Below, piece by piece: positions 4,828 to 21,251 of a stretch of 64,000 nucleotides of DNA. A program made the position numbers and the translations under genes. The DNA comes from Amylibacter sp. (GTDB lineage Bacteria; Pseudomonadota; Alphaproteobacteria; Rhodobacterales; Rhodobacteraceae), in contig JAQXAV010000052.1 in the NCBI GenBank assembly GCA_029252725.1, positions 23,081 through 87,080 of the forward strand, given 5' to 3'. How positions within the stretch are numbered: the first letter of the stretch is position 1; the number at the start of each line of letters is the position of its first letter. Under the pieces are notes generated by a model that was not told where the DNA came from, made no database searches, and saw only the letters and a program-made list of their open reading frames with translations.

Positions 4828-5679
4828 CTAAAGTTCCTCTCGTCCAAAGAGGCCCTTGGGCCGTAAAATTAAAACCGCAATGATCAGCACCATGGTCATC
4901 ACTCCACGAAGCTCGGGCGCGATAAAGGCAGATGTCATTACCTCCATAAACCCAATAATATGTGCTACAATGAGCGTACCAATAATTGACCCGATACCAC
5001 CCACAATCACAACTGCAACAGCTATAATAAGTGGCGCAACCCACATGCCAGGATATAGCTGTGTGTAACTGGCAAAGAACACACCCGAGACCGCGCCAAG
5101 CATCCCTGAAATCCCCCACGTGATCATATTGATGCGATTTGCGTCAATCCCGGAAATAGCTGCACCTTTAGGGTCCATCGACACTGCTTGCATGGCTCGA
5201 CCCGTATGGGTTTTACGTACAAACAGATAGAGAGAAATGAGGATCACCCAACTTGCCACCGCCGCAAACAAATTCGAATATGGGATTGCTGCGCCACCAA
5301 TACGTTCAACTCCCGGAATGATCGGCAGCAAAATTTTGGAACTATCGCCAAATAATAAGACGATACCTGCTTGCAAAACAACGGCAAGGATCAGCGACGA
5401 AATTTCAACCGCCACATGGTCGCCCTTAAGCGGTTTCACAAGCAAACGATATTTTAACAAGCCCATTAGGCAACCAAGGATCGCGGCTAAAAGAACGCCT
5501 GCAATTTTGGGCATTCCAAGTGTTTGCGCAAAATAGAAATATGTGTACCCGCCGATCAGCAAATATGCGCCATAGGCAAGGTTAAGGATACGTCCAACAC
5601 TAAAAATCAGCGTGAACCCCATCGCAATCAATGCGTATAGCCCGCTCAGCAATAGTCCTTGGATCAGGATTTGCGCCAT
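4828..5679 (-). CDS. livH: Liv-type ABC transporter permease (LivH-like)
   Basis: GLLLSGLYALIAMGFTLIFSVGRILNLAYG, TGRAMQAVSMD, VIVGGIGSIIG. Start set at MAQILIQ. Confidence 0.85.
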   Translation of the reverse strand: MAQILIQGLLLSGLYALIAMGFTLIFSVGRILNLAYGAYLLIGGYTYFYFAQTLGMPKIAGVLLAAILGCLMGLLKYRLLVKPLKGDHVAVEISSLILAVVLQAGIVLLFGDSSKILLPIIPGVERIGGAAIPYSNLFAAVASWVILISLYLFVRKTHTGRAMQAVSMDPKGAAISGIDANRINMITWGISGMLGAVSGVFFASYTQLYPGMWVAPLIIAVAVVIVGGIGSIIGTLIVAHIIGFMEVMTSAFIAPELRGVMTMVLIIAVLILRPKGLFGREEL

Positions 5680-5708
5680 AAAATCATGCCTATAAGAGAA
5701 ATCATTGA

Positions 5709-5735
5709 GGACGGCGCGAAGTGTCCGCGCCATCC
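5709..5735 (-). terminator. GC-rich hairpin after the substrate-binding gene (terminator or mRNA stabiliser)
   Basis: Minus strand GGATGGCGCG-GACACTT-CGCGCCGTCC, 10-bp stem with one G.U pair, between SBP and permease genes. Confidence 0.55.
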
Positions 5736-5746
5736 ATCAGGAAGAA

Positions 5747-7036
5747 TTACTTCTTAACCCAGCTAGGGAGGGAAAATGTCGTTGTTGCAAATTCAGGCGG
5801 ATAGACCACCCCAACACTGCCATCTTCTTTCCATTGCACAACAACCATGGACGGCGCCGCATCTTCATAAGGTGCGGTTAAGTCAAACAGAGCATTATGC
5901 GGATAAGTGCGGCCCGTGACCGGTTCAACGGTATCTTTGTCCCAAAAACCGTAGCGTAGGACCAATTTACCATCTTTTTCCAGCGTAAGGTCCTGCTTCT
6001 CCATTGCTTCAGACCATTTTTTTACATCGCCAAAACCACCAGCTTCTTCAGCTGCTGCCATGGCTTGTTTCATGCCATAATAAGCATTGAAACCATTGAA
6101 GTGCGGCATCATTGGCCGCGACTTATATTTAGTTTGGTAGGCCTTAACAAAAGCTTCAGACGTTGGATCCAGCGCGTAACCAACAGACGGAACAGGAGAC
6201 AACGTAGAAATTCCCCCGCCTTGTCCACCGGTATCTTCCCAGTACTCCATCCCAAGCGCTGATACATTCACACCTGTCATTCCCATTGGCACTTGCAGCT
6301 TCACATACTGCGATGAAATCACCTGAGAGTTCACAGAAGACACCTGATAAATGAAGTCTGCACCAGACGCTTCTGCCTTAGAAAACAGCGGTGCAAAGTC
6401 ATTTGTGTTGATGTCATAAGTGATGATTTCTTTCACCTCAATCCCTGCCACAGGGCCAAGCGCCTCTGTTACCAGACCCGTAATTGCACCACCAAAAGCT
6501 GTGTCTTCAGCCAAAATAACAACGCTTTCCCAACCCATTTCTTTCTTGAGAACATCCGCACCAAAATTGATGTAGAGCGTTGCTAAAGCTTCATCTGACG
6601 CGATGTTCATGAAATACGGCGCCATGGTTTCTGGGTCTTCAACCACCATATCAATGATGCCGATGTAAGACGTCCATGTATCAAGTGTCGGAATTTGGAA
6701 TTCCTGCATTCGAGGTAACCAGCCCAAGGATACATCGTCGATGGAACCTGAAATGATAAAATCCACCTCTTCGGTTTCGGCGAGATATTCATAGGCTTTC
6801 ACGCCTTCAGTCACGTCTTCGCCAGTATCAGCACTGACCAAAACAATCTTTTCGCCCATTACACCACCGTTGGCGTTTAACTCTTCAATTGCAATCTCTG
6901 CGCCGCGAAGCGTGGATAAGCCTGTATCAGACGACAAAGATCCAATAAATCCCACTTTGATATCTGCGAAAGTAGCTGAACCAAGTAGCAGCGCACTCAG
7001 TGTTACCGTTGAAAACACAGTTTTCTTTAATTGCAT
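5747..7036 (-). CDS. Liv-type ABC transporter periplasmic substrate-binding protein, ligand unknown
   Basis: Signal peptide (MQLKKTVFSTVTLSALLLGSATFA), IKVGFIGSLS..GAEIAIEELNANGGVMG, first gene of the permease/ATPase operon. Confidence 0.85.
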   Translation of the reverse strand: MQLKKTVFSTVTLSALLLGSATFADIKVGFIGSLSSDTGLSTLRGAEIAIEELNANGGVMGEKIVLVSADTGEDVTEGVKAYEYLAETEEVDFIISGSIDDVSLGWLPRMQEFQIPTLDTWTSYIGIIDMVVEDPETMAPYFMNIASDEALATLYINFGADVLKKEMGWESVVILAEDTAFGGAITGLVTEALGPVAGIEVKEIITYDINTNDFAPLFSKAEASGADFIYQVSSVNSQVISSQYVKLQVPMGMTGVNVSALGMEYWEDTGGQGGGISTLSPVPSVGYALDPTSEAFVKAYQTKYKSRPMMPHFNGFNAYYGMKQAMAAAEEAGGFGDVKKWSEAMEKQDLTLEKDGKLVLRYGFWDKDTVEPVTGRTYPHNALFDLTAPYEDAAPSMVVVQWKEDGSVGVVYPPEFATTTFSLPSWVKK

Positions 7037-7082: not shown

Positions 7083-7098
7083 CGTATACAGTATACAG
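7083..7098. promoter_or_regulatory. Putative GntR/FadR-type operator upstream of the ABC transporter operon
   Basis: CGTATACAGTATACAG, tandem GTATAC units also seen at 14097 and 19328. Confidence 0.6.
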
Positions 7099-7363
7099 TG
7101 CACATAGTCAGATTCATTGCAACACTGGATTTTAAGGACTTTCAGCGGCTGAAGTTTCTAACACTCAGTATTTCGACATCTTGTTTTAGCACGCATACAA
7201 CCAATGATTTCTGCGAAAGGCATATTAAAATAAAAATATTTTCCTTCGATGGCAGTTGCAAATTTACACAAGCCATAAGCAAAAAAGTTATTTTCCATCC
7301 GTTTGAATCATTAAAACTTCAACATTAGTAACAAATAGGATACCAAAGAGAACCAATAAAAAT

Positions 7364-7771
7364 TTAATAGTGAATATTGCCTTCTTCGTCGTGTATAATC
7401 GCATCCACATCGATTTCTACCATCATACCAGGCTGAGTTAGTCCTGCCTCAACACCCGTCATCACAGGATCAATGCCCTTAAATACCTCCCCATGGGCTT
7501 TCACCAAACCCCCTGCAGCCGACATATCTGTGATATATGCCCTAGTCCGCACGACGTGGCGCATCTCTGCCCCCACTTCGCGCAATGCTCCTTCAATGCG
7601 GTCAAGGATGTAAACGCTTTGCGCGTAACAGTCGTTAGGTGCATGCAGTTTACCACTCGGCTCAATCGCTGTAGTCCCAGCGATATAAACAAATGGCCCG
7701 ACGCGTTTCGCACGAGAATAGCTACCGATCTCTTCAAATCGTCCACCCGAATTCCACCTACGAAGTGTCAT
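7364..7771 (-). CDS. Rid (YjgF) family protein, last gene of the BMC operon
   Basis: GYS-like GSYSRAKRVGPFVYIAGTTA, VVRTRAYITD, MMVEIDVDA. ATGA overlap with the mdh-like gene. Confidence 0.85.
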   Translation of the reverse strand: MTLRRWNSGGRFEEIGSYSRAKRVGPFVYIAGTTAIEPSGKLHAPNDCYAQSVYILDRIEGALREVGAEMRHVVRTRAYITDMSAAGGLVKAHGEVFKGIDPVMTGVEAGLTQPGMMVEIDVDAIIHDEEGNIHY

Positions 7772-8946
7772 AGGCCAAGCCGCGTGCGAATAGCCTCGGC
7801 CGCGCTGTGCAAAGCGTTGGTTTCATCAGGTGTAAGTCGTATTTCCTCTACGCTTACCAACCCTGTAGCACCCAGATGCGCAGGCACACCTAGCACCACG
7901 CCAGACATACCATATTCACCTTGGAGCATCACTGAAACAGGCACGGGGCCCACCTTTGCGCCGCGAATGTGATCCATTAATTCAACCGAAGAATGCGCGG
8001 GAGCTATCGTGGCTGAACCTGACTTCTTAATCGCAACAACCTGTCCACCCCCCGTGATCGCGTCCTGTACGCAACCCGAAATTTGTTCATCGGATAAAAA
8101 CCGCTCCAACCGCCGTCCTTTAATGCGCGCCAATGACGTAATTGGAGCCATTTCATCCCCGTGACTGCCTAATGTGATCGCAGACACATCATCAGGCGTT
8201 ACACCGGCCGCCATTGCCAACGCATTGCGGAAACGCGAACTGTCAAGCGTCCCTGCCATCCCAAGAACCCGTTCGCGCGGGAACCCTGTAGCCCGAAGCA
8301 TTTCAACCGTCATCTCATCAAGCGGATTGGTAACAACAATCACTATTGCATCGGGCGCAGAAGTTTTAATAGCCTCTCCAGCTGAGTGAATAACCCGTGT
8401 GTTTACATCAATCAGATCAGCCCGCGTCATACCGGGACTTCGGGCACGACCTGCAGTCACGACAACTAGATCAGCCCCTGCAACCAACGTCAAATCTTCG
8501 CCGCCCACACACCGCGCCTTTACACCCGTAATACCACTAGCGTGGTTGAGGTCGAGCGCTAAAGCCTCTGCCATTCCGGGTGCTATATCAATCAGTGAGA
8601 TCTCTTCCGCCATATCCGCAATGGCTGCTAGATGCGCGATATTACCACCAACACCGCCAGCACCAACCAGCGCAATCTTAGAAAACCGCCGAGCGGTACG
8701 TTTGACAATAGCCCTCGGCGCAACCCATTTTGGCGAACGCCGAAAGAGCCCCCGCCGCATTGCTGTTCGACCATCCGTCCTTACCACTGCTGGTTTTTCG
8801 AGCGGCCCTTCGACCAGCTTGATTCCCAATCTCGCAGCTGTTTCACGCGCTAAGTCTGTAACAATATCGCTCGGCAAAACTTCAAAGACAATGCGGCTGT
8901 GTTTTCGCGCATCCTCAATATGTTCTGACCCTACGATGCGTGACAT
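7768..8946 (-). CDS. Malate dehydrogenase (LDH-like MDH) with about 88-aa N-terminal extension
   Basis: KIALVGAGGVG Rossmann motif, TAGRARSPGMTR (Arg at the MDH specificity position), VTNPLD, LDSSRFR, GSHGD catalytic motifs intact. Confidence 0.85.
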   Translation of the reverse strand: MSRIVGSEHIEDARKHSRIVFEVLPSDIVTDLARETAARLGIKLVEGPLEKPAVVRTDGRTAMRRGLFRRSPKWVAPRAIVKRTARRFSKIALVGAGGVGGNIAHLAAIADMAEEISLIDIAPGMAEALALDLNHASGITGVKARCVGGEDLTLVAGADLVVVTAGRARSPGMTRADLIDVNTRVIHSAGEAIKTSAPDAIVIVVTNPLDEMTVEMLRATGFPRERVLGMAGTLDSSRFRNALAMAAGVTPDDVSAITLGSHGDEMAPITSLARIKGRRLERFLSDEQISGCVQDAITGGGQVVAIKKSGSATIAPAHSSVELMDHIRGAKVGPVPVSVMLQGEYGMSGVVLGVPAHLGATGLVSVEEIRLTPDETNALHSAAEAIRTRLGL

Positions 8947-9569
8947 TATTCTGTCCGTCCATCCACTGATTCAATCGCTTTAGTCGCCGCCTGAACAGCA
9001 GTTTGAACAGAGTCTTCCGACCCAGAAATAAATAATCGGCCAAACCGACCAACCGCACGAACTTCGACCATATCGATTTCGGCAGACTTCTCAGCCTCAT
9101 TTGCCGCAATTGAAATATAAGCCGCGGGAGCACATTCGATAATCCCCAGGGTTTGTCCTGGAACCAAAAGCGAACCCTTGCGCCACTTGTTCAATAGCTG
9201 CGCCTGATACGGCTCTACGCTTGTGATAATTTGCGTGTTTGTGATTGCTGGCTTCAACCGATCCGCCATTGTTGCACCCAGTTCTGAGAGCATTGCATCC
9301 CGAGCTGCAGTCACCTCAGCGTTACTCGGCGAGCGCAGAATAAAAAAGCCAAACTCCCGCTCCACCATTTGTGTCGTCGCCTCGACCGAGGAAGCCTTCA
9401 AAGCACGGTCGATCAGCGAAAAAACTCCGTTGCCTGGCGCAAATTCACCAATTAGCACAGTATCACCCGACAAAGGCACGGAACCCTGAACAGTAGCACC
9501 GTTATATGCGGCGAATTTTGGCTGTAAATTGTCGATCTGCATTAGCGCGCGAATTGTAATGTCACTCAT
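8946..9569 (-). CDS. BMC shell protein, tandem permuted BMC-T (CcmP/CsoS1D-like, BMC-Tdp type)
   Basis: 207 aa; IDNLQPKFAAY..G, E.APG, ALKASSV, VEREFG in domain 1; G..LGIIECAPAAY...AANEAEKSAEI..VEVRAVGRFGRLFISG in domain 2. Confidence 0.85.
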   Translation of the reverse strand: MSDITIRALMQIDNLQPKFAAYNGATVQGSVPLSGDTVLIGEFAPGNGVFSLIDRALKASSVEATTQMVEREFGFFILRSPSNAEVTAARDAMLSELGATMADRLKPAITNTQIITSVEPYQAQLLNKWRKGSLLVPGQTLGIIECAPAAYISIAANEAEKSAEIDMVEVRAVGRFGRLFISGSEDSVQTAVQAATKAIESVDGRTE

Positions 9570-10945
9570 TCGCCATACTCCTCATAGATATCGCGCCAAG
9601 GGCGGTTTTCATAGGCCACACGCTTGATATTGATCAGGTGCAGTGCTGTAACGTTGTCCGATGTGATACTGCCAGACCATGTGCCAGTGCCAAGCATAAA
9701 GGACGGTTCCAAATCAGTTGAATAACCCATGCCACCCAAAATCGCTGGTGTATTCACAAGGACGCGGCCCGTGGGCACCGCCGCAAACTGAGCCACGATT
9801 TCTGGATCGTTTGAGTGCAAGCAGGCTGAGTGGCCCCAGCCCTCAAACTTTGCAATATTAATCGACATCTCAATGCCATGCTGGCTGTCACGCACCTCAT
9901 AGAAGGCTAAAACAGGATTCAACTTTTCTGCACTAAGCGGACGATGCCAACCAATTTCGGTCTCCTCAGACACCAAACAACGCGTTTTGGGCGGAATCGA
10001 AAACCCAGCAGCGTCCGCTAATGCTTGTGGGCTTTGCCCAACACGCTCTGCATTCATCGCTTGCTTACCCATAAAGATTACTTTGGATAAACGGTCACTT
10101 TCCGCAAGGGTGCAGAAATACGCTCCACGCATCTTCATTTCTTGGCGCAACTCACGCGCAATCTCGGGATCGGCTATTACCGCTTGTTCCGAAACACAGG
10201 CAGTACCGTAGTCAAAACACTTGGAGGTTACGATCATCTCAGCAACTTCGCCGATCTCACCACCCTTCGATTTATGAACATAACAGGGTACGTTGCCTGC
10301 ACCAACAGCCAACGTCGGCTTACCACTTGAATAGGCCGCCTTTACCATCGCAGGGCCACCCGTCGCCATAACAACTGATGTGCGGCGGTGACTCATCAAT
10401 TCGGCCGTGCCTGCAATGGTCACTTGGTCTAAACACTGAATCAAACCCTTCGGCGCACCCATTTGTTCAGCTGCGTCCGCCATCACCTTGATTGTCGCCA
10501 TCCCACACTTAATGCCACGCGGATGTGGCGCACAAACAATTGCATTGCCTGCCTTCACTGCCGACAGTACCTTAAAAATAATCGTCGAAGTCGGGTTCGT
10601 AACTGGTATTAATGCTGCCACAACGCCCATAGGCTCGCCAAACGCCGCAACCTTCGTCGCATCATCACGCCACAACATTCCAAGCGTCGTCACATCACGT
10701 AGAAAATCCGCAACCGAAAGCGCGTTAAACAAATTCTTAAGCCGCTTATCAGGCACGTTCCCGTATCCTGTTTCTTCAACGGCCAGTGCGGCCAGCTCTT
10801 TGGCAACAGGTTCAATTGCCCGTGCCATCGAATCGACAATTGCATCTACATGCGCAGGGTCCGTGCCAAGAAATTTTTGATACGCCGTAAAAGCCGTTTC
10901 CGCGGTTCGCCGTGCAGCTGCAATGGATTTAAGATCATCGTCCAT
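9566..10945 (-). CDS. CoA-acylating aldehyde dehydrogenase (EutE/PduP family)
   Basis: PMGVVAALIPVTNPTST, ATGGPAMVKAAYSSGKP, catalytic SKCFDYGTACVSEQ, EKLNPVL, GHSACLHS, GTGTWSGSITSDN. Confidence 0.9.
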   Translation of the reverse strand: MDDDLKSIAAARRTAETAFTAYQKFLGTDPAHVDAIVDSMARAIEPVAKELAALAVEETGYGNVPDKRLKNLFNALSVADFLRDVTTLGMLWRDDATKVAAFGEPMGVVAALIPVTNPTSTIIFKVLSAVKAGNAIVCAPHPRGIKCGMATIKVMADAAEQMGAPKGLIQCLDQVTIAGTAELMSHRRTSVVMATGGPAMVKAAYSSGKPTLAVGAGNVPCYVHKSKGGEIGEVAEMIVTSKCFDYGTACVSEQAVIADPEIARELRQEMKMRGAYFCTLAESDRLSKVIFMGKQAMNAERVGQSPQALADAAGFSIPPKTRCLVSEETEIGWHRPLSAEKLNPVLAFYEVRDSQHGIEMSINIAKFEGWGHSACLHSNDPEIVAQFAAVPTGRVLVNTPAILGGMGYSTDLEPSFMLGTGTWSGSITSDNVTALHLINIKRVAYENRPWRDIYEEYGE

Positions 10946-10946
10946 A

Positions 10947-12134
10947 TCAACTTCCTCCCTTGGCTATTGCGTCCATGGCGGATCGCGCCGTGTCTATATC
11001 TTTGGCGGTAATCCCAATAGTATCAAGCCGCCGTCCCGCTGCCGCAACATCTGCACCCAAAATGGCACTCGCCAGCGTAATCATCGATTGCGTCACAGGC
11101 AGTTCAATCCCTGCCAGCTTTCCAGCTGACATAAGCGGCACGAGCGAGCCAATAACTCCATCACGCAACAATGCCTTAGCACCATCTTGATCCGGCACAG
11201 GCCTTTTAGCCTCTCCCTTTACAACACCGGCATGGGTTTCAATCAAAGTTTTCACACCCGCCAATCCACGGACACCAAAGGCTTTCGCAACAGACATCCG
11301 TTCTTTTGTCAATTGTTCGATTATATTGCGCTGTTCGATACCAATCAGAGCAGCAAAGTTCTGATTCTCCGCCAAAGGCGCCCCGCCCATGGGCACAGGC
11401 ACTGCGCCTGAACCCAGTGCCGGACCACTCATCAACAACGCGGGAAACTCTACCAGAGCAGATCCATCTGCGAAGCCAGATGTTAGGACACTGTCACAAG
11501 CTTCTAAATTTGGAAGGTATTTGGCCAAACCTTCCAAAACATCATCCCGACCACTTGGTAGAGTTGCGGCAGCTACAGGTCCGCACGGAGATAAGTTTAA
11601 AACCGCACCCTCTGCCTTAACAAAAAACGGCAAACCTTGCGCTTCGACAATCGTTATATCTGCAGTACAGCCACCAATACGTAAAAACCAAGCAGTTTCA
11701 AGTGCGCCCAACGATCGACCAGGGGCCAAAACCAAAACCTGCCCATCAGACAGATGATCAGCCAATACCATCGCGTAGGTGCGTTGCTTGTGTACAGGCC
11801 CCGTCAGGTAAATCACGTCTGCTTCTCTAACGGACGCATCTAGTTCCGCCGTTGTTTGGATGGACGGCGACGTACGATCTACCTGATAAGTGCCAACTGG
11901 CCCAGCGCCGCGCAGAGAGACACCGCTCGACGAGCGCAATGCCTCCAGTTCGGACCCATAGGCTGAAAAGAGTGAGACTTTCGCCCCTTCAGCCAGGCTC
12001 AGCGCCGCAATAAGCCTCGCATCTTCACCGCCACCCAGCACTGAGATACGGTCATAGGACGGCACGTTTCTTGACTTTTTGGACGCAGACGAGCTTGAAG
12101 CCGCATCCGCGAATTCTGCAAACGCATTGGTCAT
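10947..12134 (-). CDS. NAD/NADP octopine/nopaline (opine) dehydrogenase family homologue with degenerate motifs
   Basis: Family-like layout (ISVLGGG, A.V..ADVIYLTGP, GQVLVLAPG, GSLVPLMSAGKLAGIELPVTQSMITLASAILG.D....GRRLDTIG), but GGGEDA replaces GxGxxG and the expected NxxxHP and RYxxED motifs are missing. Confidence 0.75.
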   Translation of the reverse strand: MTNAFAEFADAASSSSASKKSRNVPSYDRISVLGGGEDARLIAALSLAEGAKVSLFSAYGSELEALRSSSGVSLRGAGPVGTYQVDRTSPSIQTTAELDASVREADVIYLTGPVHKQRTYAMVLADHLSDGQVLVLAPGRSLGALETAWFLRIGGCTADITIVEAQGLPFFVKAEGAVLNLSPCGPVAAATLPSGRDDVLEGLAKYLPNLEACDSVLTSGFADGSALVEFPALLMSGPALGSGAVPVPMGGAPLAENQNFAALIGIEQRNIIEQLTKERMSVAKAFGVRGLAGVKTLIETHAGVVKGEAKRPVPDQDGAKALLRDGVIGSLVPLMSAGKLAGIELPVTQSMITLASAILGADVAAAGRRLDTIGITAKDIDTARSAMDAIAKGGS

Positions 12135-12163
12135 GGAAGTATCCCTTCAGGCGTTAGATTTAA

Positions 12164-12460
12164 CTAACCAGCAATGCCTTCAAGAATGGCTTCCAGTTCA
12201 TCATGTGGGCGTGCGATCACATGGACAGACACCACTTCACCAACCTTGTTAGCTGCTGTCGCACCCGCGTCTGTTGCCGCCTTTACCGCGCCGACTTCGC
12301 CACGAACGAGCGTTGTTACCAACCCACCGCCCGCTTTTGTTTGTGCAACAATCGCAACGCTTGCTGCTTTGACCATCGCATCAGCCGCTTCAATAGAAGC
12401 GACCAAGCCACGTGTTTCGATCATACCTAGAGCCGATTGGCCCGCTGCTGGTTTCGCCAT
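12164..12460 (-). CDS. BMC shell hexamer protein (BMC-H, EutM/PduA-like)
   Basis: [60 protein letters not shown]. Confidence 0.95.
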
Positions 12461-12484
12461 TGTTTTTCTCCTAAATGACAGTGA

Positions 12485-12754
12485 TTATTTTGCGAGGGCG
12501 ACTTTATCCACCACCGCGACAATTGTTGCATCTACGGGCGAACCCGCGCTTCCAGCCGCCATACGAGCCGCTGATCCTGTAGTAATAAGCACGGTGTCTC
12601 CAACGCCTGCACCCACCGTATCCGTGGCTACTTGTGCCTCTGATAAAACGCCACCAACGCCATCGGTGATGTCACACAGAAGCAAGGTCGCCCCAACTAG
12701 CTGTGTATCTTTGGCGGTGGCCGTGACCGTCCCAACAACGCGAGCTAGTTTCAT
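12485..12754 (-). CDS. BMC shell pentamer/vertex protein (BMC-P, EutN/CcmL family)
   Basis: MKLARVVGTVTATAKDTQLVG, VATDTVGAGVGDTVLITTGSAAR, PVDATIVAVVD. Confidence 0.95.
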   Translation of the reverse strand: MKLARVVGTVTATAKDTQLVGATLLLCDITDGVGGVLSEAQVATDTVGAGVGDTVLITTGSAARMAAGSAGSPVDATIVAVVDKVALAK

Positions 12755-14061
12755 CAGAAGTTCCCCAGATAACGGTCAAGTTCGATCTGTGTAACTTGGT
12801 TGTTGATAAACTCATTATAAAAATTCAATTCCCGCTCGCACATTTGCAAATAGATTTCCCACTGTGTTTCTCCCATAACGTCCTTGAGCCACGCAGACCC
12901 GCGGGCAAGATCAATTGCAGTGCCTAAATCCGTTGGGATCGGAGCTGCACGTTGAGATTCATAAGCATTGCCCAGCTCACATTCATCGGGCTCTATACTC
13001 TGCTCAATACCATCCAAACCCGCTGCAATATCAGCAGCCAGTAACAAATATGGATTAGCATCTGCACCCGCGTCACGCTTTTCGATCCGTGTGGCTGTGT
13101 TAGACCCTTGAATCACGCGCAAACCGACAGTGCGGTTGTCCAATCCCCAAGCTGTGTTGATCGGACAAAACGTGTAAGGCTGACGGCGACGGTACCCGTT
13201 CACTGTAGCAGAACCACAAACAGACGCTTCCGCCATCCGCTTTTGCAAACCACCCAAAAAATGTCGGCCCATCTCACTCAACTCACCCTTATTTGCGAAG
13301 ACGTTCTTACCGTTTTCCCAAACTGAATAATGCGTATGGAACCCATTGCCACTCTCCTCAAAGAATGGCTTTGCCATAAAGGTCGCCTTGTAATCGTGCG
13401 CAGATGCCAGCTGCTTTACCAAAGTGCGGAATTCAACCGCACGATCTGCAGACAACATTGCTTCGCCGTAACGTATATTCACCTCAACCTGGCCGGCCGC
13501 ATACTCCGGATTAGACTGCTCGATTGGGATACCGTACTCATTAATTTGTTGGCGGATCGGACCAAGCACATGCTCTAACTCCGCTGAACGATCAAGACCA
13601 TAAACACCGATCCCCCGGTCTTTTGGCAAATTTGTTTCGGGGTCAAGCAGATAGAATTCGAGTTCCGTACCAACTTGTACCTGAAAGCCCATCTTTTCCG
13701 CACGCGTCAACTGTCGTTTCAAAACGTTGCGCGGATCAATCGGTAATTCGCTGTGATCCATTGCTTCAGAACGCCCCATGCACATCGCCACACCCGGCTC
13801 CCAAGGCAACTCTACAGGTTGTGTCATCGGAAACATGTGAAAATCAGGGTAGCCATTGTCAAAGTTCACATAGGGTGTGTCCCAGACATCGCATGTCATA
13901 TCGATCGCGAACAAAGCGATAGAATAAGCATTTCCGTTCTTACAAATATTGTCCCAATGAGTTGCAGGGATGCGCTTTCCACGCATTATTCCACACATAT
14001 CTCCTAAACCCATTACAACAGTATGCGTTCCCTCTGGTAATTTAAAGCTTTGATTAGACAC
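12754..14061 (-). CDS. Glutamine synthetase family gamma-glutamylamide ligase (PuuA/PauA-like), first gene of the BMC operon
   Basis: D..GIMRGKRIP, ELEFYLL, EYAAGQVEVNI, SGNGFHTHYSVW, WGLDNRTVGLR, RIEKRDAGADANPY. The GS glutamate-flap 'EAP' is replaced by 'FCP'. GTG start with GGGAG upstream; TGATG overlap with the BMC-P gene. Confidence 0.85.
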   Translation of the reverse strand: MSNQSFKLPEGTHTVVMGLGDMCGIMRGKRIPATHWDNICKNGNAYSIALFAIDMTCDVWDTPYVNFDNGYPDFHMFPMTQPVELPWEPGVAMCMGRSEAMDHSELPIDPRNVLKRQLTRAEKMGFQVQVGTELEFYLLDPETNLPKDRGIGVYGLDRSAELEHVLGPIRQQINEYGIPIEQSNPEYAAGQVEVNIRYGEAMLSADRAVEFRTLVKQLASAHDYKATFMAKPFFEESGNGFHTHYSVWENGKNVFANKGELSEMGRHFLGGLQKRMAEASVCGSATVNGYRRRQPYTFCPINTAWGLDNRTVGLRVIQGSNTATRIEKRDAGADANPYLLLAADIAAGLDGIEQSIEPDECELGNAYESQRAAPIPTDLGTAIDLARGSAWLKDVMGETQWEIYLQMCERELNFYNEFINNQVTQIELDRYLGNF

Positions 14062-14096
14062 ATTTTTCTCCCTGTCCTACAGTCCTTGCTATCAAA

Positions 14097-14118
14097 CTGT
14101 ATTCTGTATACAGTATCC
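14097..14118. promoter_or_regulatory. Putative GntR/FadR-type operator in the divergent promoter of the BMC operon and the flavoprotein gene
   Basis: CTGTATTCTGTATACAGTATCC, containing the perfect palindrome CTGTATACAG within three 7-bp-period units. Confidence 0.65.
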
Positions 14119-14147
14119 ATAAATACAGTTTCCGCAAGGATTTTCTG

Positions 14148-15290
14148 ATGTCGAAAGCTAACATTATAATAGTCGGTGGGGGAATAGCTGGCGCCATGAC
14201 CGCGCTAAACCTCCAACGCAATGGCGAGCGTGTGACTCTCATCGATCGATGGGAGCCCGGTCATCCCCGTGCTGCCTCGACCGACTATAACCGCGTTATC
14301 CGCGCCATCTCCGGTCGTGATGAATTCTACACTAGATGGGCACGCGAAAGCCGCACGCGCTGGCTGGAACTTCAAACTGAGACTGGCCAGAAACTAATGT
14401 ATGAATGTGGCGCTCTTATCCTCGCCACTAGGGGCCACTGTGACTGGGAAGACGCCACCGCTACCACCTTCGACCGTGTTGGTGTCCCCTACTACAAACT
14501 CAGCAAAGAGGAAGTGCAACAACGTTTTCCACAATTCAAAGTGGACGAAATCGAATACGCCTTGTTTGAACCTGAAGCCGGCCTCCTCATGGCGCACCGC
14601 TGTGTAATCACCGCCATTGACCTATTCAAGAAACTTGGCGGCACGGTCAAACGCGAAATCGTCACAACAGACGCAACCGAACGCCCAATGGTTAACGGAA
14701 AGCCGCTAGAGGCAGACGTGATAATCGTTGCTACAGGCGCTTGGATGGCAGAAATGTTTCCAAAAACAATCAAACCAATCAGTGCAATAATGGGAATAAA
14801 CGTGCTTTACACTTCTACCCCTGACGGATCCGATGCGTTCGACATGGATAACATGCCTTGCTGGATCGATCATGGCCAAGGTTCATTCGGCATCCCAAGT
14901 TCGGAGGGATCAGGCGTCAAAGCCGCCGTTGTTATTCCAAACACACCTATCGATATTAACAACGACGAACGTTTGATCGAAAAACAATCGCTCAACAAAA
15001 CCCGCCAATATATACGTCACCGACTCCCGGGCCTTGAAGGACAACGCATTGTGGACAGTAAATTTAATCAAGTCATCTTAACGCCCGACACACATTTTAT
15101 CGTCGACTGGCATCCCAAACATAAAAACGTCCTGCTCGCTGGCGGTTGTTCGGGACACCTGTTCAAACACGGCCCAATCTTTGGCGAATTTACTGCTGGG
15201 GTTGCCATGAAAAACTATGGCACAGCCGACCGTTTCAAAATCGCGGGCCGCCGCAAACTCTCTCCTAAGGAGAGCCCAAGTGGACGTTAA
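14148..15290 (+). CDS. FAD-dependent amine oxidase, monomeric sarcosine oxidase / N-methyl-amino-acid oxidase family
   Basis: IIIVGGGIAG FAD motif, AASTDYNRVIR, TPDTHFIVDWHP, GCSGHLFK. Confidence 0.8.
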   Translation: MSKANIIIVGGGIAGAMTALNLQRNGERVTLIDRWEPGHPRAASTDYNRVIRAISGRDEFYTRWARESRTRWLELQTETGQKLMYECGALILATRGHCDWEDATATTFDRVGVPYYKLSKEEVQQRFPQFKVDEIEYALFEPEAGLLMAHRCVITAIDLFKKLGGTVKREIVTTDATERPMVNGKPLEADVIIVATGAWMAEMFPKTIKPISAIMGINVLYTSTPDGSDAFDMDNMPCWIDHGQGSFGIPSSEGSGVKAAVVIPNTPIDINNDERLIEKQSLNKTRQYIRHRLPGLEGQRIVDSKFNQVILTPDTHFIVDWHPKHKNVLLAGGCSGHLFKHGPIFGEFTAGVAMKNYGTADRFKIAGRRKLSPKESPSGR

Positions 15291-15563
15291 GACTTAGTGC
15301 TGGCAACCAATAAAAACCTCAGCCTTCGGACAGATAAAGATAAACAAACCTCTGAACATAATTGCTTGAGGCCACCCATGCCATTGCCAAAAAGTAAATA
15401 TCTCTGCTTCAGCCCCACTCAAAGACCGCTTCAATTTGGAGAATAACAGCTAGCTTTCGATCGGTTTAGGCACTTTTGCTTAGGTCTGACAAACGAGCTT
15501 AGGGATGCGTCAGGCTAGGATGTGACATCTTTTTGAATACCGACGACACGGATCAAAATAAAA

Positions 15564-16271
15564 TTATAGATTAGCCGCGTGCACGCGAAAGAATTTGGCT
15601 ACTTTTTCAGTCATTAAATCAGCTTTCACGTCTCCTGCGTCAAAGCTGGCCAGGGCGGCTGCCATTTCCGCATCGTTCGGAAAACCTGACTGGCCTTGCG
15701 CACGCGCAAACACATCCGAAATGTGCTTCTTCGTATGTTCGGGATGAAATTGGACACTGGCAGCTGGAAAGTCATATTCTAACGCACCCACTGGACAGTA
15801 ATCCGCTATCCCCGTGACCTTAGCATTTGGGGGCACTTGGGTGACCTGATCCTGGTGCCACACATGCGCGTCCACCTCAATACCATTGAGATCAAATTGA
15901 CGCACGCCAACAACGTTGCCACCCAAAGTCTTTTCAGCCTTACCTCCAAACGTATCTGCCATGATCTGATGCCCAAAACAAATTCCGAAGATCGGCTTAC
16001 CCACCACTTTGGTGTTCCGTAACAATTGGCGCAGCGGCTCCATCCACGGCGTATCATCGTAAACACCAAACTCTGACCCAGTCAGCAACAGTCCATCAAA
16101 CGTATCCAGTCGCGGCATGGGCGCGCCACCCTCCGCCACATCAATCCGCGCAAATTCCGCATCAGACATCGCAGGTGCGATCCACTCGACAGTTTGCTCC
16201 CCAACGCTGGGTAATCCCTCCAACATTGGAACTGGATGTCGTGTCAGATCGAGAACGGCAATTCTCACCAC
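15564..16271 (-). CDS. Class I glutamine amidotransferase (possible gamma-glutamyl hydrolase)
   Basis: LTGS, nucleophile elbow GICFGHQ, WHQDQV, QFHPE catalytic His-Glu. Confidence 0.85.
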   Translation of the reverse strand: MVRIAVLDLTRHPVPMLEGLPSVGEQTVEWIAPAMSDAEFARIDVAEGGAPMPRLDTFDGLLLTGSEFGVYDDTPWMEPLRQLLRNTKVVGKPIFGICFGHQIMADTFGGKAEKTLGGNVVGVRQFDLNGIEVDAHVWHQDQVTQVPPNAKVTGIADYCPVGALEYDFPAASVQFHPEHTKKHISDVFARAQGQSGFPNDAEMAAALASFDAGDVKADLMTEKVAKFFRVHAANL

Positions 16272-17689
16272 TCATAGGCCCTATCAATTCCAGCCATCTT
16301 CACCCCCGTAAAAGCAGAAGCTTCAAAAGACAATGCACGCAGATCTTCAACCTCTAAGTTATGTACCGATGATTTACCACATGCCTTAGCCAATGCCGTG
16401 ATTTCCATCGTCATCGCTGTCAGATACCGCGCCACACGTTCGGCACCCGCGTGGGGGTCCATGCGCTTCTCCAACTCTGGATCTTGCGTTGCCACGCCAA
16501 CTGGACACATCCCTGTATGACAGTGGTGACAAGCCCCTGGAGATGTGCCAAGCTTCGCGTAATCTTCTAAATAACGGGGCGAATTACAGCCCATTGCGAT
16601 CATCGCCGCATTTCCAATCATTACCGCATCTGCGCCCAAGGCGATCGCCTTGGCCGCATCGACACCTGATCGAATACCGCCCGCCGCAACAAGCGACACC
16701 TTATCCGACATCCCACATTCATCCAGACTTTCTCGCGCTGCACGAATGGCCGACATATTCGGAATACCTGTATGGTTAAGCAGAAGTTCAGGCGACGCAC
16801 CAGTGCCGCCTTCCGCCCCATCTACCACGATAATATCAGCACCAGCCTTTGCCGCAACCGCCACATCGAACCGTGGACGCGTTGCACCCATCTTTATGGA
16901 AATTGGCACCTTATAGTTGGTCGCAATCCGCAGCTCTTCAATTTTTACAGCCAGATCATCGGCACCAAGGAAGTCTGGGTGTCGAATTGTCGACCGCTGA
17001 TCCACGCCTTCAGGCAAAGTGCGCATCTTTGATACGCGCGGGGACACTTTCATCCCAAGCAGCAAGCCACCCGTTCCAGGCTTTGCGCCCTGCCCTACAA
17101 CAATCTCGAGCCCATCCGCGCGACGCAGATGTTCCAGATCAATTCCATATCGGGCGGGTGACATTTGATAAACAAGCCTCTGCGAAGCCTCCCGCTCCTC
17201 TTCGAGCATCCCACCTTCACCCGTGCAGGTCATTGTTCCAACTTTGGATGCACCGTAACCTAACGAAGCTTTTGCAGATGCAGACAATGCACCAAAAGAC
17301 ATCGACGCGATATAGATTGGAATTTTTAGTTCGAGCGGATTTTCAACAATCCCACGTCCACCACCTAAAATGGTTGTTGTATCACACTTCTCGCGGTAGC
17401 CTTCTAACGGTAACCGCGTCATCGTTGCGGGCACAAACGTCAGGTCATCGAAAGTTGGCATCCGTTTATTAAAGGAATTATAGCCACGCACCTGATAACG
17501 CCCCAGCTGAGCTAATGCATGCACTTCCGAAATCGCTTCGGGTGTCCAGCGAGCTGAACCACCTTCGTCATAAGATGCGGGAACACCTGCTGGACGACCT
17601 TCTACAGCACCCGCATCTTTAAATCGAATTTCATCCTCGGGCGGCAGCTCGAATGGATAATCATATGGTTTGCTTAGATCATGAGCCAT
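16265..17689 (-). CDS. FMN-binding glutamate synthase domain protein (N-methylglutamate synthase subunit C, MgsC/GlxD-like)
   Basis: MSFGALS, TGEGG, GQGAKPGTGG, DGAEGGTGA, GGIRSG.D, Fe-S motif CHHCHTGMCPVGVATQD. Confidence 0.85.
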   Translation of the reverse strand: MAHDLSKPYDYPFELPPEDEIRFKDAGAVEGRPAGVPASYDEGGSARWTPEAISEVHALAQLGRYQVRGYNSFNKRMPTFDDLTFVPATMTRLPLEGYREKCDTTTILGGGRGIVENPLELKIPIYIASMSFGALSASAKASLGYGASKVGTMTCTGEGGMLEEEREASQRLVYQMSPARYGIDLEHLRRADGLEIVVGQGAKPGTGGLLLGMKVSPRVSKMRTLPEGVDQRSTIRHPDFLGADDLAVKIEELRIATNYKVPISIKMGATRPRFDVAVAAKAGADIIVVDGAEGGTGASPELLLNHTGIPNMSAIRAARESLDECGMSDKVSLVAAGGIRSGVDAAKAIALGADAVMIGNAAMIAMGCNSPRYLEDYAKLGTSPGACHHCHTGMCPVGVATQDPELEKRMDPHAGAERVARYLTAMTMEITALAKACGKSSVHNLEVEDLRALSFEASAFTGVKMAGIDRAYEW

Positions 17690-18366
17690 GCGCTTGCGTC
17701 CCTGCTTTCAAAATACCATAGGCGCTGGCCGGATACCAGTTTACGCCATTCCCGTGATGTGTCCACCAAGCCCAAAGGATCCAAAATAGTGTCCACTTCT
17801 GCAACTTCTTCAGCTGTAGGCTCAACTGCATGGGCATCCACGCCCAAACTTTCAATTTCGCCCGCAACCCAAATCTCACCTTCCCACAAGGCATCAGCGC
17901 AGCTTTCACCCGCACCACCCAGCGCAATGATCTTACCGCTATGGGACATAAATCCAGACTGGTACCCAATCTTGCCTTCAACCACAATATTGCCGCCCTT
18001 CATGGCGACCCCAACGCGCGGTCCTGCATCACCTTTGACGTGAATCGTCCCGCCCATCATGGCCGCACCACAGGACATGCCTGCGTAGCCACCCACGGTG
18101 ATGTGCCCTTTGGACATTCCCTCACCACAGGCCCAGCCAGCATTGCGTTCTATATCGATGGTCGCACCCACATTGAGCCCTCCACAGTAATATCCTGTGG
18201 AGCCTTCAAAACTAATTTTACATCCATCGGGCAATCCAATGCCAAGGTTGTGACGTGACAATGTATTGACCACACGGACTACCTTATCTGAGGCCGCAGC
18301 ATCCTGGATTTCCTCATTAATTTCTTTTATGTGACGCTTACCAACCTCGATGATATGTTCGCTCAT
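17674..18366 (-). CDS. Glutamate synthase GXGXG domain protein (MgsB/GlxC-like)
   Basis: GSTGYYCGG, GWACGEGMSKG, repeated G-x-A-G beta-helix units; sits between the GATase II and FMN-domain genes. Confidence 0.85.
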   Translation of the reverse strand: MSEHIIEVGKRHIKEINEEIQDAAASDKVVRVVNTLSRHNLGIGLPDGCKISFEGSTGYYCGGLNVGATIDIERNAGWACGEGMSKGHITVGGYAGMSCGAAMMGGTIHVKGDAGPRVGVAMKGGNIVVEGKIGYQSGFMSHSGKIIALGGAGESCADALWEGEIWVAGEIESLGVDAHAVEPTAEEVAEVDTILDPLGLVDTSREWRKLVSGQRLWYFESRDASAWLMI

Positions 18367-19307
18367 GCTGCTATGCTCCGATTGTTAACACCCCACAGCC
18401 CAGTCAAAGACGGTCCGTCATGGTTGATCACATCACACTCATTGCTGAATACACGGCGCACGGCTTGTTCTTCAGTTGCCATTGCTAAATCACCATTTTG
18501 GTCTATCACAACTAACGGCTTCATCGCGAAGCGGTCTTTGGCAAAGCCAACCCCTTCTGTATTCGCAATCATGTAGGTAAAAACTCCATCAATGCTGCTA
18601 ATAGATTTTCTGAGCGCCTGTTCCATACTAAGTCCTGCTTTAATCTGGTCACTAACCCAAACTGCAATTAGCTCGCTGTCGTTCTCGGTTAGGAAGCGGT
18701 AACCTCGACGCTCCAGCTTATCCCGCCACGTATAATAATCTGTGATCTGGCCATTGTGGACAATCGCTACATCACTAAATGGACGCGCCCAAAACGGATG
18801 ACTTGCATTGGGCAGCACGCTAGACTCAGTCGCCAATCGCGCATGTCCTAAACCGTGCGTCCCTTGCATATCATGAACGCCGTGCTTGTCCGCCACTTCG
18901 GCAGAGCCACCCATGTCCTTGATGATCTCAAGTGAGCGCCCACAAGATTGAATTTCAATCCGATCCGTCAACTCATCCGCATCAGCAATCCAAGCGGCCA
19001 GATCGTTGGGATCTTTGATTTCCATACGAAAACAGTAGTGTTTATTAGCATCTTGAACAATCTTTGGCTCAGACAGTAAATCACTACCATTATCACGCAG
19101 AATGTTTGTAAAATCAGCCAAATCGGCATCCATCTGCATCTTACTAAACCCTATTCCCCTCAACACATATCCCACATCGCGCGGTGGGCCATAAATTGCA
19201 AACCCTGTGCTATCGGCTCCACGGTGTTCCTGTGCATCCATTAAGTCGACTAAATCACGGCCAACAGCGCCAACGCCCTGCATTATTCGTCCTGCAATTC
19301 CACACAT
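18363..19307 (-). CDS. Class II glutamine amidotransferase (MgsA/GlxB-like)
   Basis: Start MCGIAG (Cys2 nucleophile), HRGADSTG, GHARLATES, HPF, VHNGQITDY, ENDSE, GFAKDRFAMKP. Confidence 0.85.
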   Translation of the reverse strand: MCGIAGRIMQGVGAVGRDLVDLMDAQEHRGADSTGFAIYGPPRDVGYVLRGIGFSKMQMDADLADFTNILRDNGSDLLSEPKIVQDANKHYCFRMEIKDPNDLAAWIADADELTDRIEIQSCGRSLEIIKDMGGSAEVADKHGVHDMQGTHGLGHARLATESSVLPNASHPFWARPFSDVAIVHNGQITDYYTWRDKLERRGYRFLTENDSELIAVWVSDQIKAGLSMEQALRKSISSIDGVFTYMIANTEGVGFAKDRFAMKPLVVIDQNGDLAMATEEQAVRRVFSNECDVINHDGPSLTGLWGVNNRSIAA

Positions 19308-19327
19308 AAACAGACCCTCCACTTTCA

Positions 19328-19344
19328 TTGTATACTGTATACAG
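19328..19344. promoter_or_regulatory. Putative GntR/FadR-type operator between mgsA-like and gntR genes
   Basis: TTGTATACTGTATACAG; a further CTGTATACG copy lies at 19418-19426. Confidence 0.65.
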
Positions 19345-19451
19345 CCCAATAAAACAGGCAAGGAGAAAATGAGCGCTTGTGACACAGGGGTTTCGCTTGC
19401 CAGTGTATTTGTGGATTCTGTATACGGTTAAAAGGAAATAAAGGACCAAGC

Positions 19452-20114
19452 ATGAGCTTCAAAAGCATTCAACCCGCCCGTCGCCGCTTGGCAGACGAAG
19501 TTTATGACGAATTGATTGAGGCGATTATCCGCCGTGATGTTGGCCCTGGAGACAGCCTTGTTCAAGAAAAGCTCGCGAATGAAATGCAGATCAGCCGCAC
19601 CCCAGTGCGTGAAGCATTGATGCGGCTGGAAAGTGAGGGTGTGCTAGAAGTCTCCAACCGCGGCAGCTTCCGTCTGTATCAAATGGATGATGAAGAAGTC
19701 AAAGAGCTATATCAATCCCGCGCAGCAGTTGAAGGGCAATGCGCACGCATTCTGGCAGTAAACCATACACAAGACGACATCGACACTCTTCGCCACGTTG
19801 TCGAAAAGGAAGAGAATATCCCGGACAAAACAGCGCGAAGCTATTTTGAAGCCAACCGCAACATTCATATGGCCTTTGTAAAGCAAGCCAACAATCGTTT
19901 TCTCATGGATATGTTCAACATGATTTGGGGCAAAGCTTTGGTCTTTCCTCTTTTCGCCACCATTGAGAACGTCAAATTGGAAAAATCACTCGGCGATCAT
20001 ATGCAACTAATAGAAGTCATCGCCAGTGGCGACAAAACCGAAGCACTCGAAGTATTCACAGATCACATTCAAGACGGCTTCGACCTACAAATCAAAGGGT
20101 TGCACGCCAATTAG
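19452..20114 (+). CDS. GntR family (FadR/FCD) transcriptional regulator
   Basis: LADEVYDELIEAI...LVQEKLANEMQISRTPVREAL HTH, FCD-type NRNIHMAF and DHMQLIEVI. Confidence 0.9.
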   Translation: MSFKSIQPARRRLADEVYDELIEAIIRRDVGPGDSLVQEKLANEMQISRTPVREALMRLESEGVLEVSNRGSFRLYQMDDEEVKELYQSRAAVEGQCARILAVNHTQDDIDTLRHVVEKEENIPDKTARSYFEANRNIHMAFVKQANNRFLMDMFNMIWGKALVFPLFATIENVKLEKSLGDHMQLIEVIASGDKTEALEVFTDHIQDGFDLQIKGLHAN

Positions 20115-21133
20115 ATTTGCGCAGTAGTTACTCGCGCCACCAGCTCAGGCTGCAACTCCTCACGGCTAATGTCCAGGCTATCCCCCGCGATCAACCGTAC
20201 TATTAAATCCGCCGCCTGCCCACCAATGGTGCGTGCGGGCAAGCGCACTGTGCTCAGGGCAGGCTCCATATCTTTGGAACCTTTGAAATCACCAATCCCC
20301 ATGACACTTATATCTCCTGGTACACGCACCCCCATTTGCATTGCAGCATATAGACATCCCTGTGCGATCACGTCATTTCCACACAATAATGCACTCGGCC
20401 GATCTTTTTGTGACAATATTTCCAGACAAACGGCCTTCGCTTGAGACACACTGTAAGGCGTCATCCACTGCCTCGAAGGTGGCAACGAAATTCCAGCGGT
20501 GGCCAAAACCTCTTTGGCCCCGCGCAACCGATCAAACGATCGGTCGTTCCCTTGCGTATCCGGAAACACTGCACCAACATCTCTATGCCCTAGATCTAAC
20601 AGGTGCTGTGCTCCCATGCGGCCCGCCAGAAGATTTTGTGTGCCCACACATGATATCCTCGATCTTTCGTTGTAATTCCAAACAGCAACCACAGGCAATT
20701 TTTGCTGCTTCAGCAATAAAAATGTCTCTTCAGAATGCTCCAACCCAATTAGAGCGATACCATCCACGCGGTGTTCTAATAATTTACGTACCACCGCGTA
20801 TTCGCGCTCCAAGTCATACCCATGCGAAGTCATCAAAATCGTAAACCCCACCGACTCCAACTTTTCTGAAAACGACTGAACTAACTCGGCAAAGATCGCA
20901 TGATCAATCGTTGGCACCACCAACCCCACTGTCCCAGAGCGCTTCCCATGCATTGCCTGCGCCGCCCGATTACGGATGTACCCCAACCGTCTCACCGCAC
21001 GATCAATCTTCTTGCGAGTCGCAGGATTAACCAAGTCGGGGTGATTAAACGTCCGCGACACCGTCGATGCAGACACTTTTGCGGCTCGCGCAACAGTCGT
21101 AATATCAACCTTACTCTGATGTTTTTTAACCAT
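20111..21133 (-). CDS. LacI family transcriptional regulator
   Basis: ITTVARAAKVSASTVSR HTH, LGYIRN, NDVIAQG, DISVMGIGD, LSTVRLP. Confidence 0.9.
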   Translation of the reverse strand: MVKKHQSKVDITTVARAAKVSASTVSRTFNHPDLVNPATRKKIDRAVRRLGYIRNRAAQAMHGKRSGTVGLVVPTIDHAIFAELVQSFSEKLESVGFTILMTSHGYDLEREYAVVRKLLEHRVDGIALIGLEHSEETFLLLKQQKLPVVAVWNYNERSRISCVGTQNLLAGRMGAQHLLDLGHRDVGAVFPDTQGNDRSFDRLRGAKEVLATAGISLPPSRQWMTPYSVSQAKAVCLEILSQKDRPSALLCGNDVIAQGCLYAAMQMGVRVPGDISVMGIGDFKGSKDMEPALSTVRLPARTIGGQAADLIVRLIAGDSLDISREELQPELVARVTTAQI

Positions 21134-21158
21134 TAAAGTTATCCTAATAGCTAATTTT

Positions 21159-21186: not shown

Positions 21187-21251
21187 TCCATAGCTTGGTG
21201 CCTTACCAAAGGTCAACCAGCTGCCCTTTGAAAATTTCGTTTGGAGGCGGA

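Follow-up and report, generated by a model that had tools for sequence, protein, structure and literature searches.

The stretch of DNA considered here, hereafter the window, comprises 64,000 nucleotides of an Amylibacter sp. genome (GCA_029252725.1, contig JAQXAV010000052.1, positions 23,081 to 87,080 of the forward strand) and contains a 19-kb cluster of amine-catabolism and bacterial microcompartment (BMC) genes, which Pfam and NCBIfam assignments resolve into five transcription units. A short periodic element recurs at the promoters of this cluster. Its distribution suggests, with a probability of about 0.8, that it serves as the operator for a FadR/VanR-type GntR regulator encoded alongside and that the whole cluster forms one regulon under repression by that protein. 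The transcription units and the predicted operators are as follows, in order of position.

2452 to 7036, minus strand: Liv/urea-type ABC transporter, consisting of a substrate-binding protein (SBP), two permeases and two ATPases
7083 to 7103, minus strand: predicted operator of the ABC-transporter (SBP) promoter, GTGCAC-T-GTATAC-T-GTATAC-G; string at 7083-7098, CGTATACAGTATACAG
7364 to 14061, minus strand: MIC2-type BMC operon (Pfam/NCBIfam)
14092 to 14133, no strand assigned: predicted operator of the divergent DAO/GS-BMC promoter; string at 14097-14118, CTGTATTCTGTATACAGTATCC
14148 to 15290, plus strand: MSOX/MTOX-like FAD oxidoreductase (DAO), divergent from the BMC operon
15564 to 19307, minus strand: mgsABC-like operon (GATase_6/7, GXGXG, Glu_synthase) with a class-I glutamine amidotransferase-like gene (GATase; hereafter GAT)
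19323 to 19349, minus strand: predicted operator of the mgsA-like promoter, GGGC-T-GTATAC-A-GTATAC-A; string at 19328-19344, TTGTATACTGTATACAG
19400 to 19432, plus strand: weak gntR-proximal site, TGTATTTGTGGATTC-T-GTATAC-G; string at 19418-19426, CTGTATACG
19452 to 20114, plus strand: gntR, divergent from mgsA, encoding a FadR/VanR-type GntR of 220 residues with a winged helix-turn-helix and an FCD domain

The string given for each operator is the one quoted by a first-pass annotation of the window, and a direct reading of the window recovers all four at those positions.

The genes of the BMC operon follow one another in the order glutamine synthetase (GS)-like ligase, BMC-P, BMC-H, 6PGDH/octopine-DH-like protein, EutE-like acylating aldehyde dehydrogenase (AldDH), 207-residue BMC-T-like protein, LDH/MDH protein with an N-terminal extension (the LDH core begins at residue 90) and RidA. 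This set of shell and cargo proteins, with Pfam hits for each component, matches the MIC2 type of the Sutter 2021 catalogue. Pfam sees a single BMC domain in the 207-residue shell protein, the length of which equals that of one MIC2 BMC-Tdp entry in the catalogue tree, from Thermocrispum agreste. The 22 loci from which Sutter et al. 2021 describe MIC2 belong to Acidithiobacillia, to Alpha- and Gammaproteobacteria and, in two cases, to Actinobacteria, and the type is catalogued without an assigned function and without a recognised aldehyde-generating signature enzyme. The catalogue and supplement text that was searched names no regulator for MIC2, GntR included, and literature searches returned no description of this regulon, nor of any BMC in Roseobacter-group bacteria. 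In the mgs-like operon, PF13522/PF13537, PF01493 and PF01645 are carried by consecutive overlapping genes, which is the three-gene arrangement of MgsABC.

The element shared by the sites is GTATAC-N-GTATAC, an odd palindrome of 13 bp. The true unit is larger, consisting of three hexamer boxes with a 7-bp period that together span 21 bp, and a matrix derived from orthologous sites gives it the consensus G(A/G)ATAC-T-GTATAC-A-G(A/T)ATAC-A. The central 10 bp, CTGTATACAG, form a perfect palindrome and are the best-conserved portion of the array. A description of the 21-mer as a strict inverted repeat was considered and set aside, the GNATAC of the two flanking boxes being kept in the same sense on both sides of the centre; the array is better described as a central palindrome with two same-sense boxes. 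The first-pass annotation had noticed overlapping units with a 7-bp period, an observation that is refined here to the three-box array. It had also noted that the sites at 7083 and 19328 share a 14-mer in opposite orientation; the sharing is real but carries little weight, following almost automatically from the motif, since GTATAC-N-GTATAC and its reverse complement differ at the centre base only.

The individual sites differ in strength when scored with the 21-mer matrix. The highest score of the genome, 35.2 bits, belongs to the DAO/GS operator, whose core at 14098-14118 reads GGATAC-T-GTATAC-A-GAATAC-A on the minus strand and which has an additional ATACAG box at 14124-14129. The SBP-promoter operator scores 23.4 bits and precedes the start codon of the SBP gene (7036) by 47-67 nt, and the best 21-mer of the mgsA operator (19329-19349) scores 17.8 bits, with the centre of the operator about 29 nt upstream of the mgsA ATG (19307). 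Weakest, at 11.7 bits, is the gntR-proximal site (best 21-mer 19412-19432), found 20-50 nt upstream of the gntR ATG and sharing with the DAO/GS site the extended layout GTATAC-A-GnATCC-A-nAAATACA; it is likely to be an autoregulation site.

The occurrence of the motif is far above chance and is concentrated at the promoters of the cluster. When up to two mismatches are allowed, the 13-mer GTATACNGTATAC has six matches in the window against 0.75 expected, all six at the four sites, and none of 100 dinucleotide shuffles of the window attains this number. The assembly as a whole (2.78 Mb in 133 contigs, 99% complete) contains two perfect and three one-mismatch copies, four of the five within the cluster. 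The fifth (GTATACTGTGTAC, one mismatch, C23:181-193) was discarded as a regulatory site; it falls within the first 100 nt of the coding sequence of a GcvT/DmdA-like aminomethyltransferase and is judged to be a chance match. With the matrix, trained on 127 orthologous sites, the positions in the cluster score 35, 28, 23, 22, 18 and 17 bits and are the six top hits genome-wide, the best score elsewhere being 14.4. The related loci, 1.5 Mb in all, give 157 hit clusters above 15 bits, of which 151 coincide with mgsA/gntR, DAO-GS or SBP promoters, and at least three of the remaining six are the same promoters in loci with reversed or incomplete annotation.

Scans with the exact string ATACWGTATACAG give the same picture. 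In 16 cluster-bearing genomes there are 37 matches, compared with none for a reversed-letter control; by position all 37 are at or beside cluster promoters, as was confirmed for those that were fetched. Forty-one relatives, mostly without the cluster, yield 13 matches as against two for the control, and 33 of these genomes contain none. Seven of the 13 are confirmed at cluster promoters, among them one SBP promoter in a fragmentary metagenome-assembled genome (MAG) of the same genus and one DAO/GS promoter in a MIC2 locus that is more distant, with proteins 48-72% identical; two more, in the close relative G011, were left uninspected. Unrelated intergenic regions are therefore not equally rich in the motif, and the orthologous promoters keep it, which was the comparison that the first-pass annotation had called for. 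In a distant relative, a 23-bit operator-like site (L138, G030:C7:56001-68000, positions 6038-6059) lies away from the MIC2 locus of that genome; an ABC ATPase-like gene is found some 4.4 kb from it, and the site may mark an unlinked member of the regulon.

Conservation was followed in 80 loci from species-representative genomes, retrieved with an alignment of four MgsA-like proteins. They come from Rhodobacteraceae/Paracoccaceae (Ruegeria, Sulfitobacter, Lentibacter, Aliishimia, Tropicibacter, Amylibacter), Rhizobiales (Hoeflea, Ahrensia, Nitratireductor) and Gammaproteobacteria (Halioglobus, Granulosicoccaceae, Chromatiales), the closest being a MAG labelled uncultured Neptunicoccus sp. The gene order gntR(-)|mgsABC-GAT|DAO(-)|GS-BMC...Ldh(-RidA) is held in most loci of sufficient length. 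All four promoter classes keep the motif across Alpha- and Gammaproteobacteria while the flanks diverge, and beside the gene for the same GntR-type regulator it recurs in over 80 further marine bacteria. Upstream of mgsA, (G/A)ATAC-T-GTATAC-A-GTAT(A/C)C is present in practically all loci, and every one of the 77 mgsA promoters with an adjacent gntR scores at least 17.8 bits (median 32.6), where the 99.9th percentile of random 200-bp windows is 7.0 bits. The DAO/GS intergenic region contains a near-invariant 22-mer, TGRATACTGTATACAGAATACA, in 39 orthologous regions, and the site common to these loci can be written TG(A/G)ATACTGTATACAGAATACA. Here 21 consecutive positions carry about 1.7 bits each and the neighbouring positions 0.1-0.5 bits, from which it follows that the three boxes with their 7-bp period are the true unit. 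Variation among the boxes changes the strength of a box and not its specificity. The SBP promoter has the site in 12 of the 13 loci that include the SBP gene, and further genomes carry an orthologous SBP-ABC operon after RidA with a site of 21-33 bits in the RidA-SBP spacer. In Aliishimia ponticola (L133, G043:C8:537001-552000), the one exception, positions 1798-3041 contain no operator above 12 bits; the RidA-SBP gap is about 1.2 kb in this strain, and an insertion or a different promoter may be the cause. The second, gntR-proximal site exceeds the 99.9% background level in 55 of 72 loci, so that its position is kept despite its weakness.

This pattern of conservation bears on whether the palindrome could act in RNA, as a hairpin or attenuator of the 5' untranslated region, or could be a repeat without regulatory function, for instance the remnant of a mobile element, a restriction site or a chance occurrence. 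GTATAC-N-GTATAC is self-complementary and could fold, and GTATAC is a type II restriction palindrome. What is conserved, however, is the sequence and not the pairing: compensatory changes are absent and the boxes are kept as direct GNATAC units. The DAO/GS operator, moreover, is located between divergent genes and over both of the predicted -10 hexamers, and chance and a repeat-family origin are excluded by the shuffling, by the controls with reversed patterns and by the confinement of the sites to promoters. An RNA element or an inert repeat is accordingly extremely improbable.

The protein proposed to read the element has the two domains expected of its family, a GntR winged helix-turn-helix (PF00392, E 8.9e-17, residues 13-74) and an FCD domain (PF07729, E 3.1e-23, residues 85-207), and its best PDB matches are the FCD proteins TM0439 (3fms/3sxy) and McbR (4p9f). 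Among 76 orthologues, E39, R49, T50 and R53 of the DNA-binding domain are conserved, giving an R-T-x-x-R helix pattern, and N135, H139, H183 and H205 of the FCD domain are at least 97% conserved in an N-x3-H...H...H arrangement that resembles a zinc site. As for other members of the family, a GT...AC palindromic core is found in the regulator's own and divergent promoter, the core CTGTATACAG being present at all promoters including the gntR side.

The claim of the first-pass annotation that GTATAC-type palindromes are a known FadR-subfamily motif is borne out by two characterised repressors, Atu1419 (PMC7797058) and DipR (PMC11472048). In crystal structures of Atu1419, a VanR-type FCD GntR of Agrobacterium fabrum (PDB 6z74), Arg45, Thr46 and Arg49 read ATGTATACAT (PMC7797058). 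Atu1419 and the window GntR are alike in the R-T-x-x-R recognition helix, which in Atu1419 contacts the G of the TGTATACA core, and in having several sites per cluster; sites over -10 boxes, from which Atu1419 represses, and autoregulation are features of Atu1419 that are predicted for the window GntR as well. Atu1419 has an N/H/H/H zinc site, to the N137/H141/H192/H214 of which N135/H139/H183/H205 may correspond, as judged from the pattern and not from a structural alignment. The N-terminal domain of the window GntR matches 6z74 with E 5.6e-5, and similarity of the whole protein to Atu1419 is low (E 1.8e-7). Atu1419 differs in binding isolated 10-bp palindromes (ATGTATACAT) that are 109-190 bp apart, with a tetramer looping the DNA, whereas the window has three packed boxes with a 7-bp period; it also controls hydroxycinnamate catabolism and has methylene-tetrahydrofolate as its effector. 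DipR, the GntR/FadR repressor of dipicolinate catabolism in Alcaligenes faecalis, reads GWATAC hexamers at six promoters of one catabolic cluster, its own included (PMC11472048). The weaker natural variant of its hexamer, GAATAC, matches the G(A/T)ATAC flanking boxes of the window, and the DipR motif likewise served to trace its cluster across genera. Its sites, in contrast, have a single hexamer and no three-box array, and its pathway is unrelated and lacks a microcompartment.

A three-box array does have precedents within the family, because many sites of GntR-family proteins have weaker extra boxes at 7-12 nt from their centres and NanR uses direct repeats of TGGTATAW (Suvorova et al., PMC4494728). 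Escherichia coli NanR, a repressor of the FadR subfamily that is found among the PDB matches of the window winged helix-turn-helix (6on4, E 6e-6), has the operator (GGTATA)3, which likewise consists of three tandem hexamers and not of one palindrome. The box sequence is different, and the NanR boxes are not self-complementary, while the central box of the window is a perfect palindrome. The NanR boxes have a spacing of their own and are bound cooperatively by several dimers.

The position of the array relative to predicted promoter elements is consistent with repression. In 55 of 83 mgsA promoters there is a CTTG element whose first T is 21-23 nt upstream of the operator centre, and the median distance between the centre and the ATG is 35 nt. 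The -35 and -10 hexamers given here are predicted from these conserved CTTG elements and from their spacing. In the mgsA promoter of the window, a putative -35 hexamer TTGCCT (19361→19356) is followed after 16 nt by a predicted -10 hexamer TACAGT (19339→19334) inside the operator. The DAO/GS region has two facing -35-like hexamers, TTGCTA (14086-14091, plus strand) and TTGCGG (14137→14132, minus strand), and the predicted -10 hexamers, TACAGT (14109-14114) and TACTGT (14115→14110), are both within the central palindrome, so that one array could shut two divergent promoters. The mechanism proposed from this geometry would have one array act on each of the ABC-transporter operon, the divergent DAO/GS-BMC pair and the mgsABC-like operon, and a weaker one beside gntR. 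As the array overlaps the predicted -10 hexamer or is placed between that hexamer and the ribosome-binding site, the bound GntR would block RNA polymerase and so act as a repressor, presumably of its own gene as well.

An activating or dual role, for example activation of the BMC operon and repression of gntR itself, would involve the same protein bound at the same sites. Such behaviour is known in this subfamily, E. coli FadR being both an activator and a repressor, and the promoter elements here are predicted ones. With a median distance of 35 nt to the mgsA ATG and a position 21-23 nt past CTTG, the site would nevertheless be over the -10/+1 region, which is unusual for activators, and Atu1419 and DipR, which read this core motif at -10 positions too, both repress. 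Activation by this GntR is thus unlikely, and repression remains the preferred reading.

In the proposed scheme an inducer would release the GntR from its operators. FCD domains with an N/H/H/H metal site usually bind carboxylates, and for this reason the inducer is probably not the free amine but an intermediate of the pathway, for example a gamma-glutamyl-alkylamide or an N-alkylglutamate. The regulon would then couple uptake, gamma-glutamylation, an N-alkylglutamate-synthase-like step, a flavoprotein oxidase and the MIC2 compartment with its acylating AldDH in one co-expressed pathway.

An indication that the element serves a trans-acting factor comes from two Paracoccaceae chromosomes, OZ241902.1 and OZ241882.1 (G047, G051), in which the cluster is split. 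The gntR|mgsABC-GAT half is 1.4-2 Mb from the DAO|GS-BMC-RidA|SBP-ABC half (L122, G047:C1:3590001-3610000, and L123, G051:C1:3937001-3957000, as compared with L054 and L084), each chromosome has a single copy of gntR, and the operator is present at every promoter of both halves. Retention of the operator at both halves implies a factor that acts in trans. The element is further tied to the GntR by the loss of operator and regulator together in a Rhodobacteraceae MAG (GM7ARB2; L038/G055), whose 2.6-Mb assembly contains no gntR orthologue anywhere. Its operators have decayed (positions 9800-10000 and 14593-14751), the mgsA site to -12.9 bits, which is background level, and the DAO/GS site to 11.1 bits. 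The cluster of this MAG is also without the GAT1 gene, and its expression may be constitutive.

Several observations weigh against the proposed regulon. One MAG (G057/L015) keeps strong sites at both promoters although its 3.5 Mb yielded no gntR orthologue, and in another (G030, 67% complete) sites are present while no gntR is detected at E<=1e-30. An E. coli-consensus promoter scan was uninformative, leaving the -35 and -10 hexamers to the CTTG elements; no usable result came from promoter and terminator scans of this kind in the three intergenic regions. Dimers of the Atu1419 type, finally, cannot occupy all of the boxes 7 bp apart without clashes.

The two gntR-less MAGs are what would be seen if the operator were real but read by another transcription factor encoded elsewhere, the adjacent GntR having another target or regulating only itself. 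For G057 either incompleteness of the assembly or another protein reading the site may be responsible; incompleteness is the likely, though not proven, cause of both exceptions, each of which is a MAG, with the completeness of G057 not reported. Elsewhere gntR adjoins and diverges from mgsA, beside the site, in 77 loci of two proteobacterial classes and is the sole regulator conserved in the cluster. A LacI-family gene (20111-21133), weighed as another candidate for the regulator, was discounted, since it is confined to the three closest loci. The GTATAC cores, furthermore, correspond to the proven specificity of FadR/VanR-type GntR proteins with a like recognition-helix pattern, and decay of the operators accompanies loss of gntR in G055. 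Control by a different factor is therefore quite improbable. The proposal of the first-pass annotation, that the whole cluster is one regulon under the adjacent GntR, accordingly finds support: a trans-acting, cluster-wide regulon is indicated by the restriction of the motif, its conservation and position, its co-occurrence and co-loss with gntR and its behaviour in trans at the split clusters. Binding by this particular GntR, repression and the nature of the effector are inferences.

A more elaborate proposal can be put forward tentatively, and in its full form it is doubtful. The three-box array may constitute an operator architecture of its own, one that GntR reads as a higher-order assembly, be it a dimer of dimers like Atu1419 or a cooperative multi-dimer like NanR, which would give a steep switch induced by a gamma-glutamyl-alkylamide or N-alkylglutamate, MIC2 having been recruited into an older GntR-MgsABC-GS amine regulon that persists without a BMC in L008 and L010. 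If this were true, a steep on/off response would suit the costly assembly of a microcompartment, and the regulator would directly reveal the substrate of MIC2.

As regulation, the system is of a well-known kind, an ordinary FadR/VanR-type GntR with a GTATAC-core operator. Its significance lies in the partners that it gives to MIC2, namely a Liv-type ABC transporter, a GS-like ligase, an MgsABC-like synthase, an MSOX-like flavoprotein and a class-I amidotransferase-like protein, and because the operators survive splitting of the cluster this link is independent of gene adjacency. The pathway is narrowed to glutamate-mediated catabolism of a small amine that would end in an encapsulated aldehyde. 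The repressor could be used for effector screening as a route to the MIC2 substrate, and the 21-mer could be used to find members of the regulon in new genomes.

Two known systems help to place this pathway. The RMM1 locus of Rhodococcus and Mycobacterium (amino-2-propanol), which among characterised systems stands nearest to MIC2 in AldDH phylogeny, also encodes a GntR within a BMC locus for small-amine catabolism, but it has an aminotransferase and a short-chain dehydrogenase and no GS/Mgs front end, and the likeness of its GntR to that of the window is one of gene location. The N-methylglutamate pathway of methylamine utilisers (GmaS, MgsABC, MgdABCD) shares with the window a GS-like ligase and a split glutamate-synthase-like trio of the same domain architecture. 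The window differs in lacking the four-subunit N-methylglutamate dehydrogenase beside those genes (mgdABCD is not among the window genes next to the cluster, and no genome-wide search for it was made) and in having a monomeric MSOX-like flavoprotein, a class-I amidotransferase-like protein and a BMC with acylating AldDH. By this comparison the different enzyme set suggests that the substrate is probably an amine of C2 or longer.

The limits of the regulon can be placed from the distribution of the boxes. Beyond gntR (20111-25738) the window encodes the convergent LacI-family regulator, a TctABC tripartite tricarboxylate transporter and a second AldDH/LuxC-like acyl-CoA reductase. No GntR boxes occur in this interval, and the LacI gene is shared with the closest relatives L013 and L014 only, so the regulon probably ends at gntR; the second AldDH is also found in L012. 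At the other end, a second RidA gene (1924-2337) and a DUF1028 gene (1253-1963) follow the transporter on the same strand and may share its operon.

The regulator and its operator also have a history apart from the microcompartment. Four distant systems without a BMC (L008, L009, L010, L011), in which the GntR has 36-48% and MgsA 63-67% identity, have the same three-box operator upstream of mgsABC-GS, and on this sequence comparison the regulator-operator pair seems older than its association with the BMC. In L010 (G031:C23, 9393-19998) the order is gntR-RidA-ABC-mgsABC-GS. In L008 (G017:C418, 6287-16972) mgsABC-GS is followed by acyl-CoA-synthetase-like (AMP-binding) genes and a non-acylating aldehyde dehydrogenase, which would take the place, in the cytosol, of the encapsulated acylating AldDH.

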